From Candidatus Aceula lacicola (lineage in GTDB: Bacteria > Omnitrophota > Gorgyraeia > Zapsychrales > Aceulaceae): a stretch of DNA of 64,000 nt. Below the pieces are notes generated by a model, which saw only the letters and a program-made list of their open reading frames with translations, had not been told where the DNA came from and made no database searches. Both the position numbers and the translations under genes were made by a program. Shown piece by piece: positions 129 to 6,527 of this stretch. How positions within the stretch are numbered: the stretch's first letter is position 1; every line of letters starts with the position of its first letter. The stretch spans positions 3,629 through 67,628 of the forward strand of contig JAVCCC010000050.1 in NCBI GenBank assembly GCA_030765785.1. Direction: 5' to 3'.

Positions 129-647
129 TTAATATTCGATTAACGCGCAAATAGGAAATTTCTTTAATTTATCTCGGCCTTTTAAAAACTTAAGCTCAAT
201 TAAAAACGCAATACCTACAATGGAGGCTTTAAATCCTTTAAGAAGCTGTGTCGTGGCCTTAACGGTTCCACCAGTTGCTAAAAGATCATCAACAATCAAA
301 ACCTTTGCATTCTTTTTTATCGCATCGCTATGAATTTCAAGAGTGTCTGTTCCGTACTCAAGATCATACGTCACACTCTTTGTTTTTGATGGAAGCTTCC
401 CCTTCTTTCGAACAGGAACAAATCCAGCTTGAAGTTTATAGGCAAGAGCTGCACCAAAAATAAAGCCTCTCGCTTCAACCGAAACAACATAATCAATTTT
501 TTTGCCCTTAAACTTCTTAGCCAACGCATCAATAGATTTCTTAAATGCGATTTTGTCATTCAAAAGCGTTGTGATGTCTTTAAAAATAATCCCTTTTTTA
601 GGAAAATCTGGAATGTCGCGAATGTAATCTTGTAGTTTCTTGTCCAT
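129..647 (-). CDS. apt: adenine phosphoribosyltransferase
   Basis: 172 aa with the PRTase motif VLIVDDLLATGGT and the typical Apt N-terminus (DYIRDIPDFPKKGIIFKDIT). Confidence 0.92.
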   Translation of the reverse strand: MDKKLQDYIRDIPDFPKKGIIFKDITTLLNDKIAFKKSIDALAKKFKGKKIDYVVSVEARGFIFGAALAYKLQAGFVPVRKKGKLPSKTKSVTYDLEYGTDTLEIHSDAIKKNAKVLIVDDLLATGGTVKATTQLLKGFKASIVGIAFLIELKFLKGRDKLKKFPICALIEY

Positions 648-665
648 GGATCCTTTTTTTTAATT

Positions 666-1520
666 TTAAACTTTTGGTTGTGCGGTCGTTTCTCTTTCGA
701 TAAATCTCGTCGGCAAAAGTACTTGAATCGGAACACCAGCGCTGCCTTCACAAATTTGATTCAACTTCTCAAGACCAAGTCTCCCCATTTCCTTTAAAGG
801 CTGAGCAACAGTTGTTAATTTAACGGCACTATGAATATTAATCGGATTATCATCAAAGCCAATCACAGAGACTTCCTGAGGAATTCTTAATCCCCTTGTT
901 TTAGCTTCATACATTACCTCCAACGCCATAACATCAGAACAAGCAAAGATAGCGGTTGGTCGATGTGTTGCATCAAACAACTCCTGTGCCGCTTTGCGAG
1001 ATGGAGTCCTTAAAAATTCTCCATACTTAATAAATTCATCTTTAAAATCAAGGCCATGCTTTTCAAGAGCCTCTTTGTACCCATCTAAGCGAAGTCGCCC
1101 TGCTTGCGTTCTCAAATCGCCGCAAACAATGGCAATGTCCTTGTGTCCTAAGTTGATCAAGTGCTCAACAGAATCAAAAGCAGCTCTCTGGTTATCAACC
1201 GCAATACTATTAATCGGTTCTTTAAAAATATTATTTAAAACAATATATGGGACGCCTGTGGCAATAACTTCTTGTAACGTTTCTACATCGTTATCAATAT
1301 CGGCAAAGATGATGCCATCAATATAATTTCGATCCACTGTCTTTCCGCTTAGCCAATCTTGGTGATCATAACGCTCGGTGATGTGCATCAAGACATCGAC
1401 TTTTAGTCGACTTGCCGTAAGTCCGATGCCTTTAACAATTTCTTCAGCATAAAAAGAATGATCCAAATCTTCAAAACGTGGGATAATCAAAGCAAATGTT
1501 TTTGTCGCCGATGCATTCAT
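666..1520 (-). CDS. LacI-family ligand-binding (periplasmic-binding-fold) protein with no N-terminal HTH
   Basis: 284 aa aligning to the LacI/CcpA effector domain (IFACSDVMALEVM..., VIGFDDNPI..., LTTVAQP). The N-terminus begins where the ~60-aa HTH would normally end. Its start codon overlaps the sigma gene stop (TAATG). Confidence 0.75.
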   Translation of the reverse strand: MNASATKTFALIIPRFEDLDHSFYAEEIVKGIGLTASRLKVDVLMHITERYDHQDWLSGKTVDRNYIDGIIFADIDNDVETLQEVIATGVPYIVLNNIFKEPINSIAVDNQRAAFDSVEHLINLGHKDIAIVCGDLRTQAGRLRLDGYKEALEKHGLDFKDEFIKYGEFLRTPSRKAAQELFDATHRPTAIFACSDVMALEVMYEAKTRGLRIPQEVSVIGFDDNPINIHSAVKLTTVAQPLKEMGRLGLEKLNQICEGSAGVPIQVLLPTRFIERETTAQPKV

Positions 1521-2347
1521 TATTCTGATTCCTCCCGAAGTCCGTTTTCTTGTTTTTTAAAAATCTCACGCAATTTCTTTATCGCTCCAACTTCCACCTG
1601 ACGAACACGCTCTCGCGAAACGCCAAGTTTCTTTGCAATCTCAGCTAAAGTGCGTTTTTCACCATCTGTGATTCCAAAACGCATATCTAAAACTTCACGC
1701 TCTCTATCAGCCATCATGCTTAAAAGATCCAACGTGCGCTCTTTGTTTAAAAAACCTTCGAGCTCTTCGTGCGGAGCTTCTAATGTTGTATCCTGAACAA
1801 TATCTTTAAATTGTCCTTCGCCTTCTTCTCCGATCGGAGCGTCCAAGCTCGACATCTTAGCAACGCACTGACGAAGTTCGCGAACACGATCAACACCGAC
1901 TTGCATTTTCTTTGCAATTTCGGCAACGCGTGGCTTTCGCTTTAATTTATGCGTCAAGTGTTCAACAGCTTTTTTATGTTTCGTAAGCTCTTCATTCATA
2001 TATACAGGAATGCGAATCATTTTTCCCTGATCAACAATAGAGCGAGAAACGCTTTGCTTAATCCACCAAGCCGCATACGTTGAAAAACGGAATCCCCTTT
2101 CAGGATCAAATTTATCGACGGCACGCATCAGCCCGATGTTGCCCTCTTCAATTAAATCACTTAAAGGAATTCCAAGATTCATGTATCGCTTAGCAATGCT
2201 AATAACAAGGCGCAAGTTCGACTTGATCATCTGATCTCGTGCTTGACGATCTCCCTTTTGAATTCTTCGAGCAAGACTCACTTCTTCTTCCGGCTTTAAA
2301 AGAGGAATATGTCGAACGTCTTTAAAATATGCGCGTATAGGATCCAA
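1520..2347 (-). CDS. RNA polymerase sigma factor, sigma-70 family (group 1/2-like, short)
   Basis: 275 aa with region 2 (DLIEEGNIGLMRAVDKFDPERGFRFSTYAAWWIKQSV), region 3 and a region 4 HTH (TLAEIAKKLGVSRERVRQVE). Confidence 0.88.
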   Translation of the reverse strand: MDPIRAYFKDVRHIPLLKPEEEVSLARRIQKGDRQARDQMIKSNLRLVISIAKRYMNLGIPLSDLIEEGNIGLMRAVDKFDPERGFRFSTYAAWWIKQSVSRSIVDQGKMIRIPVYMNEELTKHKKAVEHLTHKLKRKPRVAEIAKKMQVGVDRVRELRQCVAKMSSLDAPIGEEGEGQFKDIVQDTTLEAPHEELEGFLNKERTLDLLSMMADREREVLDMRFGITDGEKRTLAEIAKKLGVSRERVRQVEVGAIKKLREIFKKQENGLREESE

Positions 2348-2362
2348 TACTAGCCCCTTTGG

Positions 2363-5080
2363 TTATTTTTTCTTAGCTTCAATTGCCGCTTGTCCTGCTG
2401 CTAATCTTGCAATAGGAACACGGTATGGTGAACAGCTTACATAATTTAATCCTGCTCTAACAAAAAACTTAACACTCTCTGGATCACCGCCATGCTCGCC
2501 ACAAACACCACACTTTAAATTCTTACGCGTTGATCGACCGCGCTTGACAGCTATCTTAACAAGCTCTCCTACGCCTTCTTGATCGATAGAAGCAAACGGA
2601 TCGTCTCTAAGAATTTTCTTATCAATATACTCAGGCAAGAAAGTTGCAACGTCATCTCGACTGTATCCAAATGTCATCTGCGTTAAATCATTTGTTCCGA
2701 ATGAATAAAATTCAGCTTTTTCAGCAACTTTATCAGCAACAAGCGTAGCCCTTGGAATTTCCATCATCGTTCCAACAAGATAGTTGACTCTTTTACCCTT
2801 TGCCTTGATAACCTCTTCAGCAGTTTTGCGAACGATCTCTTCTAGCATATCATACTCTGTTTTTGTTCCAATCAAAGGAATCATAATCTCAGGAAGAATC
2901 TTGACCTTTTTCTTAGCCATGTTGCATGCCGCTTCCATAATCGCTGTTACTTGCATCTTGCAAATCTCAGGATAAGTAATCGACAATCGACATCCACGAT
3001 GGCCAAGCATAGGATTCATTTCATGAAGAGAATCAACCTTAGCTTTAACAACTGCTGGCGTTATCTTTAAACGTTTTGCCATCTCTGCTTGTCCTTTAGC
3101 CTCATGTGGCAAGAACTCATGCAAAGGTGGGTCTAAAAGACGCACGGTAACTGGTAGTCCATCCATCGCTTTGAAAATACCTTCAAAATCTTTTCTTTGA
3201 TATGGAAGAAGTTTCTTTAAGGCTTTTTCTCGACCAGCTAAATCATCAGCCAAAATCATTTCTCGAATTGCCCAAATGCGATCGCCTTCAAAAAACATAT
3301 GCTCTGTTCGGCAAAGGCCAATACCTTCTGCGCCAAATGCGCGTGCGTTTTGAGCATCTTTTGGAGAATCAGCATTCGTGCGAACATTAATCTCGCGTGC
3401 TTTATCTGCCCACTTCATAACTTCCAAGAAAATTTGGCAAATTGGATGTTTTAAGGCCTTTTTGTTTCCATCAATAATCCCAGAAACAACTGGCGAAGAA
3501 GATGTCTCCACATGTCCTAAAACAATCTCTCCTGTTGATCCATCAATAGAAACTTCTTCTCCTTCTTTTAAAACTTTTCCGCCCACTTTAATTGTTTTTG
3601 CTTTGTAGTCAATATCCAAAGCCGCACAACCAACAACGCAACACTTGCCCCATCCTCGAGCAACAACAGCCGCGTGAGAAGTCATTCCACCTGTTGATGT
3701 CAAAATTGCTTGAGCAGCCCACATACCAGAAACATCTTCTGGAGAAGTTTCCTTTCGAGCCAAAATAACTCTCTTTCCTTTTTCTGCCCACTTCACAGCT
3801 TCATCAGCTGTAAAAACAATTTGTCCGTTAGCAGCTCCAGGACCAGCTGGCAAACCTTTTGCTAAAACACGCTTTGCAACAATAGCTGCTATTTTTGCCT
3901 TTGGATCAAGAATCGGGAAAAGAAGTTGATTCAAATGATCACCTTCAATTCTCATCAAACCTTCTTGTTCCTTAATTAACTTTTCTTTAACCATGTCAAC
4001 GGCGACCTTAACAGCTGCAAGACCAGTTCTTTTTCCAGTTCTCGTCTGAAGCATGTACAGCTTGCCTTCTTGAATCGTAAACTCAACATCCTGCATGTCT
4101 CTATAATGTCGTTCGAGCTTCAAACGAATATCGTTAAGCTCTTTGTAAATCTTTGGCATTTTCTTTTTCAATGTTGAAATTGGATCAGGCGTACGAATAC
4201 CAGCAACAACGTCTTCCCCTTGAGCATTAATAAGATATTCACCAAAGAACTCATCTGTTCCGTCGGCAGGATTACGAGTAAACGCAACACCTGTCCCAGA
4301 ATTATCACCCATATTTCCATAAACCATAGACTGAACATTAACCGCTGTTCCTTTAAGTCCAAAAAGTTTATTGATTTTTCGATACATAACAGCTCTTGGA
4401 ATATTCCAAGATCCTAAAACAGCATCAATCGCATAAGAAAGCTGTTCTCTCGCGCTCGTCGGGAAATTCTTTCCAACACTCTTTTTATATACAACTTTAT
4501 AAACCGCTACAACTTCTTTTAACTCTTCCGTTGTTAGCTCTGTATCGAGTTTTCTTTTATATTTTTTCTTAATACGCGTTAGCTCGTGCTCAAAATGCTC
4601 ATGATCAACACCCATGCAAACATCACCAAACATATTAATAAAACGTCGGTAAGAATCCCACGCCATGCGCTCGTTCTTTGTCTTTTTAGCAAGGCCAATA
4701 ACCGCATCATCATTAATACCAAGATTCAAAACCGTGTTCATCATGCCAGGCATAGAAACCGCAGCGCCACTACGAACAGAAACCAAAAGAGGATTATCTC
4801 TATCTCCAAATTTTGCACCCATAACTTTTTCGATCTTAGCAATATTTGCATCAATTTCTTTATCTAACCCTGCTGGCTTTTTATTCTTATTCTTATCGTA
4901 ATATGCACAAACTTCTGTCGTAATTGTAAAACCTGCTGGTACTGGAACGCCGATGCTTGACATTTCTGCTAAGTTAGCACCTTTACCGCCTAAAAGCTCC
5001 TTCATTGAAGCTTTACCTTCTGCTTTTCCACCACCAAAAAAATAAACATATTTACTTATTTTACCTGCCATCTTCAACAA
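2363..5080 (-). CDS. ppdK: pyruvate, phosphate dikinase
   Basis: 905 aa with the full PPDK architecture: ATP-grasp N-terminus, a central phosphohistidine domain (GGMTSHAAVVARGWGKCCV) and a PEP-utilising C-terminus (CGEHGGDP). The true start may be the internal MAGKISKYVYFF. Confidence 0.95.
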   Translation of the reverse strand: MLKMAGKISKYVYFFGGGKAEGKASMKELLGGKGANLAEMSSIGVPVPAGFTITTEVCAYYDKNKNKKPAGLDKEIDANIAKIEKVMGAKFGDRDNPLLVSVRSGAAVSMPGMMNTVLNLGINDDAVIGLAKKTKNERMAWDSYRRFINMFGDVCMGVDHEHFEHELTRIKKKYKRKLDTELTTEELKEVVAVYKVVYKKSVGKNFPTSAREQLSYAIDAVLGSWNIPRAVMYRKINKLFGLKGTAVNVQSMVYGNMGDNSGTGVAFTRNPADGTDEFFGEYLINAQGEDVVAGIRTPDPISTLKKKMPKIYKELNDIRLKLERHYRDMQDVEFTIQEGKLYMLQTRTGKRTGLAAVKVAVDMVKEKLIKEQEGLMRIEGDHLNQLLFPILDPKAKIAAIVAKRVLAKGLPAGPGAANGQIVFTADEAVKWAEKGKRVILARKETSPEDVSGMWAAQAILTSTGGMTSHAAVVARGWGKCCVVGCAALDIDYKAKTIKVGGKVLKEGEEVSIDGSTGEIVLGHVETSSSPVVSGIIDGNKKALKHPICQIFLEVMKWADKAREINVRTNADSPKDAQNARAFGAEGIGLCRTEHMFFEGDRIWAIREMILADDLAGREKALKKLLPYQRKDFEGIFKAMDGLPVTVRLLDPPLHEFLPHEAKGQAEMAKRLKITPAVVKAKVDSLHEMNPMLGHRGCRLSITYPEICKMQVTAIMEAACNMAKKKVKILPEIMIPLIGTKTEYDMLEEIVRKTAEEVIKAKGKRVNYLVGTMMEIPRATLVADKVAEKAEFYSFGTNDLTQMTFGYSRDDVATFLPEYIDKKILRDDPFASIDQEGVGELVKIAVKRGRSTRKNLKCGVCGEHGGDPESVKFFVRAGLNYVSCSPYRVPIARLAAGQAAIEAKKK

Positions 5081-5216: not shown

Positions 5217-6527
5217 TTAATGGTTTAATAATTTATTTGATAAATATTCCTTCAAACTATCCACGGAAATGCGCTCTTGCGCCATCGTATCTCGGTCCCG
5301 CACCGTTACCTTCTTATCGCTTAAAGAATCTACATCAACTGTTACACAGAAAAATGTTCCCACTTCATCTTGTCGTCTATAAAGTTTCCCGATTGAAGCT
5401 GTGTCATCATATACCGACATAAAACATTTAGATAAATCTTTTTTAATCGCCTTTGCCGTTGAAACAATCTCTGAATTTTTCTTCAAAAGTGGCAATACCG
5501 CAACTTTAATCGGAGCCAACTCTGGACTAAATTTTAAAACAACACGTGTCGAACCTCTAACCTCTTCCTCGCAATAGGCGTCTACTAAAAACGCAAGTGT
5601 TGCACGATCAACGCCTCCGGAAGGTTCAATAATATATGGAAAAAATTTTGTGTTGGTGAGATTGTCTTGATACTGGAGATCTTTTCCTGAAGCCTTGGAG
5701 TGCTGCTTTAAATCAAAATCCGTTCGATTAGCAATGCCTTCAAGCTCTGACCAGCCAAACGGAAATTGATATTCAATATCCGTACATCCTTTGGCATAAT
5801 GCGCTAGCTCATCTGACGCATGTTTTCTAAGACGAAGTGATTCTTTTTTGATACCTAAATCAACATACCAAGCAAAGCGTTCTTCAATCCATTGTTTATG
5901 ACTCTCATCAGCTTCTTCTGGTTTTGTGAAATATTCTATCTCCATTTGTTCAAATTCTCGAGTTCTAAAAATAAAATTGCCTGGAGTAATTTCATTACGA
6001 AATGATTTTCCAATTTGAGCAATGCCAAAAGGAAGACGTTTACGCGTCGTATCAACGACATTAGAAAAATTAACAAAAATGCCTTGCGCTGTCTCAGGAC
6101 GAAGATAACTCAAGCTGCTGCTGTCCTCGGCTGCTCCCAGATATGTTTTCATCATCAAATTAAATGCTCGGCCGTCTGTAAAATCGATTGCTCCACATTC
6201 GGGACATTTTTCACCAACATGATCTTTTCGAAAACGCTTCTTGCAAGATTTGCAATCCACCAAAATATCCGAGAAACCCTCAACGTGGCCAGATGCTTTC
6301 CATGCATCCGGATGCATTAAAATACCACAATCGAGACCCACTACATCATCGCGACTGTGAACAACAGACTTCCACCAGGCATTCTTGACATTTCTTTTAA
6401 GTTCAGCACCCAAAGGACCGTAATCCCAAACACTGCTTAAACCACCGTAAATTTCGGAAGACTGAAAGACAAATCCTCTGCGCTTGCACAGAGACACTAT
6501 TTTTTCCATTAAGTTATCTTGAGACAT
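5217..6527 (-). CDS. glyQS: glycine--tRNA ligase (dimeric alpha2 type)
   Basis: 436 aa with an N-terminus (MEKIVSLCKRRGFVFQSSEIYGG) and class II motifs typical of GlyQS. Confidence 0.93.
   Translation of the reverse strand: MSQDNLMEKIVSLCKRRGFVFQSSEIYGGLSSVWDYGPLGAELKRNVKNAWWKSVVHSRDDVVGLDCGILMHPDAWKASGHVEGFSDILVDCKSCKKRFRKDHVGEKCPECGAIDFTDGRAFNLMMKTYLGAAEDSSSLSYLRPETAQGIFVNFSNVVDTTRKRLPFGIAQIGKSFRNEITPGNFIFRTREFEQMEIEYFTKPEEADESHKQWIEERFAWYVDLGIKKESLRLRKHASDELAHYAKGCTDIEYQFPFGWSELEGIANRTDFDLKQHSKASGKDLQYQDNLTNTKFFPYIIEPSGGVDRATLAFLVDAYCEEEVRGSTRVVLKFSPELAPIKVAVLPLLKKNSEIVSTAKAIKKDLSKCFMSVYDDTASIGKLYRRQDEVGTFFCVTVDVDSLSDKKVTVRDRDTMAQERISVDSLKEYLSNKLLNH

Follow-up and report, generated by a model that had tools for sequence, protein, structure and literature searches.

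Repressors of the LacI/GalR family, among them CcpA, CytR, RbsR, PurR and LacI, join a helix–turn–helix (HTH) and a hinge helix to a two-lobed core of the type I periplasmic-binding-protein (PBP)-like fold, which holds the positions that contact the inducer. Some LacI-type cores also use a protein–protein surface: CcpA works with HPr-Ser46-P and CytR with CRP, and both keep their HTH. A different arrangement is represented by Rsd, AsiA and the classical anti-sigma factors, small proteins that are encoded beside a sigma factor and co-expressed with it. We analysed a 64,000-nucleotide stretch (64 kb; hereafter the window) of contig JAVCCC010000050.1 from Candidatus Aceula lacicola (Omnitrophota), in which a gene on the minus strand (666..1520, ATG start) encodes an HTH-less LacI-type effector-binding-domain protein of 284 aa, here called LBD, directly behind the gene of a sigma-70-family factor. 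LBD has the core and the inducer-contact positions of the LacI/GalR repressors but neither their HTH nor their hinge helix, so it should not bind operators by the family mechanism; the HTH that CcpA and CytR retain is likewise absent. With Rsd, AsiA and the classical anti-sigma factors it has only the genomic logic in common: there is no likeness in sequence or fold, and the LBD gene is dispensable for the sigma orthologues in most related loci. The reading that we favour, with a probability of roughly 0.55, is that LBD is a stand-alone small-molecule-binding protein whose gene was inserted into a compact housekeeping operon and which acts via a separate partner.

LBD is a complete LacI-type effector domain without HTH. 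Its Pfam matches are solely to Peripla_BP_3, Peripla_BP_1 and Peripla_BP_4, with Peripla_BP_3 (E 2.4e-36) and Peripla_BP_1 above their gathering cut-offs, and a Pfam search of the protein for the LacI-type HTH (PF00356) gave no match. The AlphaFold2 model has a mean pLDDT of 92.7 and was aligned by Foldseek to the cores of AscG, CcpA, CelR, RbsR, LacI and PurR with TM 0.80–0.90. The best NCBIfam matches are to models of the CytR, RbsR, CcpA and PurR type, all far below their equivalog cut-offs (CytR, 146.5 vs 436; ccpA TIGR01481, 116.9 vs 442.35), and the nearest solved sequence relative is B. megaterium CcpA (131 bits). Since the NCBIfam LacI-family models align to LBD only from model position ∼ 54–85, that is past HTH and hinge, the ∼ 60 residues that make up these two elements are missing. 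A preliminary description of the locus, made from the DNA alone, had assigned this fold, had placed the start of the protein where the HTH would end and had argued that the DNA upstream leaves no room for one. All three points are borne out: the sigma gene lies there, and ahead of the LBD ATG both remaining frames are full of stop codons. Together with these closed frames, a tblastn search of the whole window with four LacI-type HTH sequences, which returned nothing significant and only the sigma factor's own region 4.2 HTH at E=5, rules out the hidden or frameshifted HTH that the same description had considered. An identity as an ABC-transporter solute-binding protein of the RbsB type was also rejected. 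The protein has no hydrophobic leader, its residues 8–14 form β-strand 1 of the fold, its gene neighbours are sigma and apt (adenine phosphoribosyltransferase), and the RbsB model scores 31.9 bits (cut-off 337) vs 146.5 for CytR. The name given to family members by NCBI, “Substrate-binding domain-containing protein”, that is LacI-like without HTH, fits LBD and carries no functional information; we found no member that has been studied.

The closest homologues of LBD are all from Candidatus Omnitrophota, including Candidatus Aceula meridiana at 73% identity. Homologues at E ≤ 1e-10 number 1489; among the best 120, 119 are HTH-less and 277–308 aa long, and more than 100 distinct clusters at 90% identity have this architecture. 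When representatives at 50% identity were searched exhaustively, the family amounted to one or two of them, and the next matches were ordinary HTH-bearing LacI proteins. The alignment of 68 members has 45 invariant columns. Synonymous sites are saturated, and we therefore compared the proportions of nonsynonymous (pN) and synonymous (pS) differences in place of dN/dS. Against the closest DNA relative (L081 among our related loci) the LBD gene of the window has a pN of 0.19 and a pS of 0.90, and apt gives a similar 0.21; mean divergence among loci is 0.43 for LBD, 0.39 for sigma and 0.37 for the pyruvate phosphate dikinase (PPDK) encoded upstream. These figures indicate that the family is under strong purifying constraint.

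The predicted pocket is part of what is conserved. LacI R197, N246, D274, D149, Q291 and L296 align to R144, S195, D223, N96, Q240 and M245 of LBD, each of which is invariant in 68/68 members, HTH-bearing orthologues included, and LacI W220 aligns to position 169, occupied by F in 62 members and by Y in 6. The E. coli LacI sequence and its inducer-contact residues were taken as background. Judged from this alignment, LBD has very probably retained the ability to bind one particular small polar ligand. The family also carries an unusual set of invariant or near-invariant residues, H21, H46, H53 and H126 with D42, D74, D78 and E17. In the alignment, H46 takes the place of LacI M98, a residue of the N-terminal-subdomain dimer interface. 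This set could conceivably form a metal site or an interface peculiar to the family.

We surveyed the gene context from both sides. A scan with one genome per species found LBD orthologues at ≥ 47% identity in 20 loci, no two of them from one assembly; 19 were informative and one was cut at its 5′ end. Fourteen of the 19 contain the block PPDK–sigma–LBD–apt. Three carry HTH-bearing orthologues in a type II secretion/pilus cluster, and the last two (L016 and L018) have an HTH-less gene away from sigma, in the order purA–mgtC–larB–larC–[LBD]–secG. In these two loci the LBD orthologue overlaps or abuts the larC stop codon (L016:5992-6837; L018:5989-6843), and the purine/AMP-related gene purA lies three genes upstream.

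The HTH-bearing orthologues are 330–336 aa long, match PF00356 (E 3e-11), are 45–53% identical to LBD of the window and have the same invariant pocket. They always lie between gspF and gspG, in the three scan loci and in two further ones (L008:5830-6837, L015:3190-4182, L040:5830-6840, L164:5001-6005 and L166:3112-4122). No hinge-helix motif was recognisable in them, and the segment at the hinge position is not conserved. Among the 20 genomes sampled the HTH-bearing and the HTH-less form never occur together: proteins such as P0141 (L040) and P0135 (L164), which have the HTH and sit at the gspF–gspG site and not behind sigma, replace the HTH-less form. The two appear to be alternative states of a single gene rather than paralogues that co-exist. 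Bootstrapped neighbour-joining (NJ) trees supported the orthologue group at 100%, monophyly of the HTH-bearing members at 77% and monophyly of the HTH-less members at only 15%.

In the window, ppdk (2363..5080), the sigma gene (1520..2347), the LBD gene and apt (129..647) run head to tail, all on the minus strand. The junction sequence confirms the stop/start overlap TAATG (1518..1522) that the preliminary description had reported: the sigma TAA (1522..1520) and the LBD ATG (1520..1518) have base 1520 in common. The same junction contains a GGGAGG Shine–Dalgarno sequence (1531..1536, minus strand), which precedes the ATG by 10 nt and lies within the 3′ end of the sigma gene. The described operon-like layout with 18 nt between the LBD stop and the apt start is correct as well, and 15 nt separate the PPDK stop from the sigma start. 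The overlap is ordinary for this genome, because overlaps of exactly 1 or 4 nt occur in 10/54 co-directional neighbour pairs of the window; altogether 20/54 overlap and 37/54 are ≤ 20 nt apart. A scan for promoter-like and terminator-like sites placed none between the four genes. These site-free junctions support co-transcription weakly, since the scan counts do not differ from those of shuffled controls.

Seen from the sigma gene, the picture is different. A metagenome scan with an alignment of sigma orthologues gave 31 loci with the orthologous block: in 22 of them sigma is followed directly by apt without an LBD gene, 7 have the LBD gene, and 2 end too early to tell. Sigma and apt overlap in 9/19 LBD-less loci, for example by TAATG (L092, L102, L106), ATGA (L091, L093, L094), TAGTG (L104) or GTGA (L103). 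Because these sigma–apt pairs and the gene pairs of the window overlap alike, the overlap belongs to the operon junction and to a compact genome and is no mark of a specific sigma–LBD pair. In the sigma tree the LBD-less L082 falls within an LBD-containing clade, and the sister of another LBD-containing group is a large clade without the gene. Sigma orthologues of 369 aa, named RpoD/SigA by NCBI, share the synteny glyS–ppdk–sigma–apt, again without an LBD gene. Since the LBD-less loci and these LBD-less orthologues keep the same gene order, our comparison suggests that glyS–ppdk–sigma–apt is the ancient conserved unit and the LBD gene a lineage-restricted insertion, which has also been lost or moved.

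These observations are consistent with a stand-alone sensor. LBD would belong to an Omnitrophota-specific orthologue group in which most lineages have lost the DNA-binding HTH. It would bind one specific small polar molecule in the canonical cleft between its two lobes and, because operator binding is not to be expected without an HTH, would have to act through contacts with a partner protein. Its gene would have entered between sigma and apt of the glyS–ppdk–sigma–apt unit in part of the phylum, and the TAATG overlap would reflect compaction of the junction rather than a dedicated sigma/anti-sigma pair. Ligand binding, action via protein contacts and independence from sigma are the steps that we infer.

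HTH-less relatives occur in ≥ 5 contexts other than the sigma operon. The more divergent HTH-less LacI-like genes adjoin GH57/rubrerythrin/HAD genes, an MBL hydrolase gene, an open reading frame (ORF) of 7469 aa or a response regulator gene, and none stands beside a sigma-70 gene. The called gene of 7469 residues has DUF1861 and peptidase M20/M28 matches and ends 22 nt before its HTH-less LacI-like neighbour (L174:1-2979). At the response-regulator locus (L175:1-2204) the genes upstream of the HTH-less LacI-like gene encode a stand-alone response regulator and a fragment of an NtrC-like AAA+ activator whose C-terminus carries a Fis-type HTH; the neighbouring regulator is thus sigma-54-related and not sigma-70-related.

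Several points weigh against a stand-alone sensor. The LBD gene lies downstream of sigma in 23/25 core HTH-less orthologue loci, an arrangement kept across ∼ 50% sequence divergence, and such tight, conserved adjacency is also the appearance expected of a functional pair. The LBD-less loci are metagenome contigs, and the LBD gene could sit elsewhere in those genomes. The NJ trees are poorly resolved and do not settle between one and several losses of the HTH. Ligand binding and the oligomeric state of LBD are read from alignment. Finally, no alternative partner was identified, so the partner mechanism is weak.

The adjacency also speaks for the proposal of the preliminary description that LBD could be a ligand-responsive modulator of the sigma factor, stoichiometrically co-expressed with it. 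In this model an LBD dimer would dock on the co-translated sigma, with region 4 or 2 as possible sites, and binding of a metabolite would release or activate the sigma. The spacing from sigma to LBD is −32 to +18 nt in 22/23 sigma-linked loci, with the Shine–Dalgarno sequence of the window's LBD gene inside the sigma gene. In the one exception (L002) 1,275 nt with two ORFs separate the two genes; these inserted ORFs, of 159 and 182 aa, have no Pfam match (L002:3436-4469, Omnitrophota UBA12090). The pocket is intact, LBD has no DNA-binding route of its own, and LacI-family cores can use protein partners, as CcpA does with HPr-Ser46-P and CytR with CRP; CcpA is moreover the closest solved relative. 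A partnership of the CcpA type itself was rejected. R303 and K307 of CcpA hold the phosphoserine of HPr and align to E251 and Q255 of LBD, so an interaction of the HPr-Ser-P kind is not expected, and the ccpA model scores 116.9 against a cut-off of 442.35.

Comparisons between sigma and LBD did not favour this proposal. The pairing of sigma with an HTH-less LacI protein does recur outside the window, in the 14 informative orthologue loci above, in 7 further metagenome loci and in 2 additional HTH-less members that were examined individually. It is not constant: the LBD gene is missing from 22/31 sigma-orthologue loci, where sigma–apt junctions overlap in the same way, and HTH-less relatives are found away from sigma. 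When 21 sigmas with an LBD gene were compared with 21 without, no residue was found to track the presence of LBD. Only two conservative positions differ (D106/E and K164/T), and at both of these the LBD-less L082 sigma keeps the residues typical of LBD-containing loci. Pairwise-distance correlations were 0.78 for sigma–LBD, 0.76 for sigma–apt and 0.81 for LBD–apt, so there is no excess of sigma–LBD co-variation over the pairs with apt; the mirror-tree method is uninformative here because the three linked genes correlate alike. No sigma–LBD fusion was present among the best 120 matches to a concatenated query of 559 aa (proteins of ≥ 307 aa listed; 8000 candidates scored), a negative that is not absolute. 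LBD matched PBP-type families only in Pfam and none of the anti-sigma domains ASD/ZAS, RsbW/SpoIIAB, FlgM or Rsd. We know of no anti-sigma factor with a PBP fold, and none was found in the literature. Taken together, these results remove the comparative support for binding of LBD to sigma, although binding itself may still occur. We consider modulation of sigma by LBD unlikely. Its wider form, in which an HTH-stripped LacI domain would have been recruited in one branch of the Omnitrophota as a metabolite-gated regulator of an RpoD-type and probably principal sigma factor, seems to us slightly less likely still. Literature searches yielded nothing on this Omnitrophota family or on a sigma factor paired with an HTH-less LacI domain; the preliminary description had likewise been aware of no described regulatory module of this kind.

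A partner of another kind would be a second LacI protein. LBD could heterodimerise with an HTH-bearing LacI paralogue to give one-headed dimers that bind operators poorly, and so act as an anti-repressor in the manner of lacI-d. That LacI subunits defective in DNA binding act as dominant negatives is well known from genetics, and at least two genomes, DOGZ01 (L009, L035) and JADFXW01 (L011, L036), encode classical LacI paralogues (333–338 aa, with HTH and hinge) in addition to the HTH-less gene. These paralogues are only 33–41% identical to LBD, however, which makes heterodimers doubtful. The closer HTH-bearing orthologues (45–53%) never accompany the HTH-less form in the 20 genomes, and the window encodes no LacI paralogue. 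We regard such subunit poisoning as quite improbable.

Alternatively, LBD might sense a purine, ribose or an AMP-related metabolite and modulate Apt or PPDK as a regulatory subunit. Apt and PPDK both handle AMP and pyrophosphate (PPi). LBD and apt stay adjacent where sigma has been displaced (L002), purA is found three genes upstream of the relocated orthologues, and the best NCBIfam matches of LBD are of the CytR, RbsR, CcpA and PurR type. However, the LBD–apt spacing (−22 to +157 nt) is looser than that between sigma and LBD, most loci have apt and ppdk without LBD, and no ligand was identified. To our knowledge there is no precedent for a LacI core that regulates an enzyme, and we judge this role very improbable. 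A decaying remnant or an annotation or assembly artefact, that is a 5′-truncated and functionless repressor gene, as the missing HTH and a start exactly at the core-domain boundary might suggest, is effectively ruled out by the conservation of LBD (the > 100 clusters of one architecture, the 45 invariant residues and a pN far below pS), its high-confidence predicted fold and its own strong Shine–Dalgarno sequence.

The sigma factor (275 aa, TTG start) is RpoD/RpoS-like, with Pfam matches to Sigma70_r1_2, r2, r3 and r4; it begins at region 1.2 and has no region 1.1. Its NCBIfam scores lie below the cut-offs (rpoS_proteo, 304.7 vs 378.7; RpoD_Cterm, 277 vs 354), and NCBI names its syntenic orthologues RpoD/SigA. 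Two lengths of sigma occur within the glyS–ppdk–sigma–apt synteny: one of ∼ 270 aa, starting from region 1.2, and one of 369–398 aa (L109–L111, L161:5001-6110), whose N-terminal extension of ∼ 93 aa matches nothing in Pfam. A region-1.1-like segment appears to have been lost in many lineages, that of the window included. PPDK (Pfam PPDK_N, PEP-utilizers and PEP-utilizers_C) is encoded directly upstream of sigma, here and in nearly all related loci. The glycyl-tRNA synthetase (GlyRS) gene glyS (5217..6527, minus strand; a 436-aa ORF) is the upstream member of the conserved block, and GlyRS genes likewise precede PPDK–sigma in L161–163, L171 and L172. The apt product scores above the NCBIfam equivalog cut-offs (e.g. 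TIGR01090, 238.6 vs 185.85).

PPDK of the window is 83% identical to that of L082 (L082:916-3606), while sigma and Apt are only 69% identical. To PPDK of L081 (L081:1241-3997) it is only 58% identical, while sigma is at 83% and Apt at 73%. Because the PPDK identities disagree with those of sigma and Apt, they suggest that the ppdk allele may have been replaced or exchanged within a fixed operon. Adjacency of sigma and apt is kept even where sigma is only 43–45% identical to that of the window (L113, L114, L122, L126 and L152; sigma at about 4001–4800 or equivalent). These loci come from soil and other metagenomes and may belong to organisms beyond the close Omnitrophota group; we see no functional reason why sigma and apt should share an operon. 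The window (129–22208 and most of the rest) has nearly all its genes on the minus strand, very tightly packed, and its GC content is 38%.

For annotation, the locus teaches that a stop/start overlap with a regulator gene in a compact genome is not in itself evidence of a partnership, because a junction of the same kind links sigma to Apt, an enzyme of purine salvage. Modulation of sigma by LBD, if true, would represent a new kind of sigma regulator, with a PBP fold, that couples bulk transcription to a small-molecule signal, since these organisms appear to have this sigma as their RpoD-type factor. If LBD is instead a stand-alone sensor, a LacI-family effector domain would have persisted for a long time under strong selection without a DNA-binding module, and its output would take a route other than operator binding, in an uncultivated phylum about whose regulation next to nothing has been learned. 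The three situations in which the gene is found, HTH-bearing in secretion/pilus operons, HTH-less in the sigma operon and HTH-less elsewhere, provide a natural system for the repurposing of a repressor scaffold.

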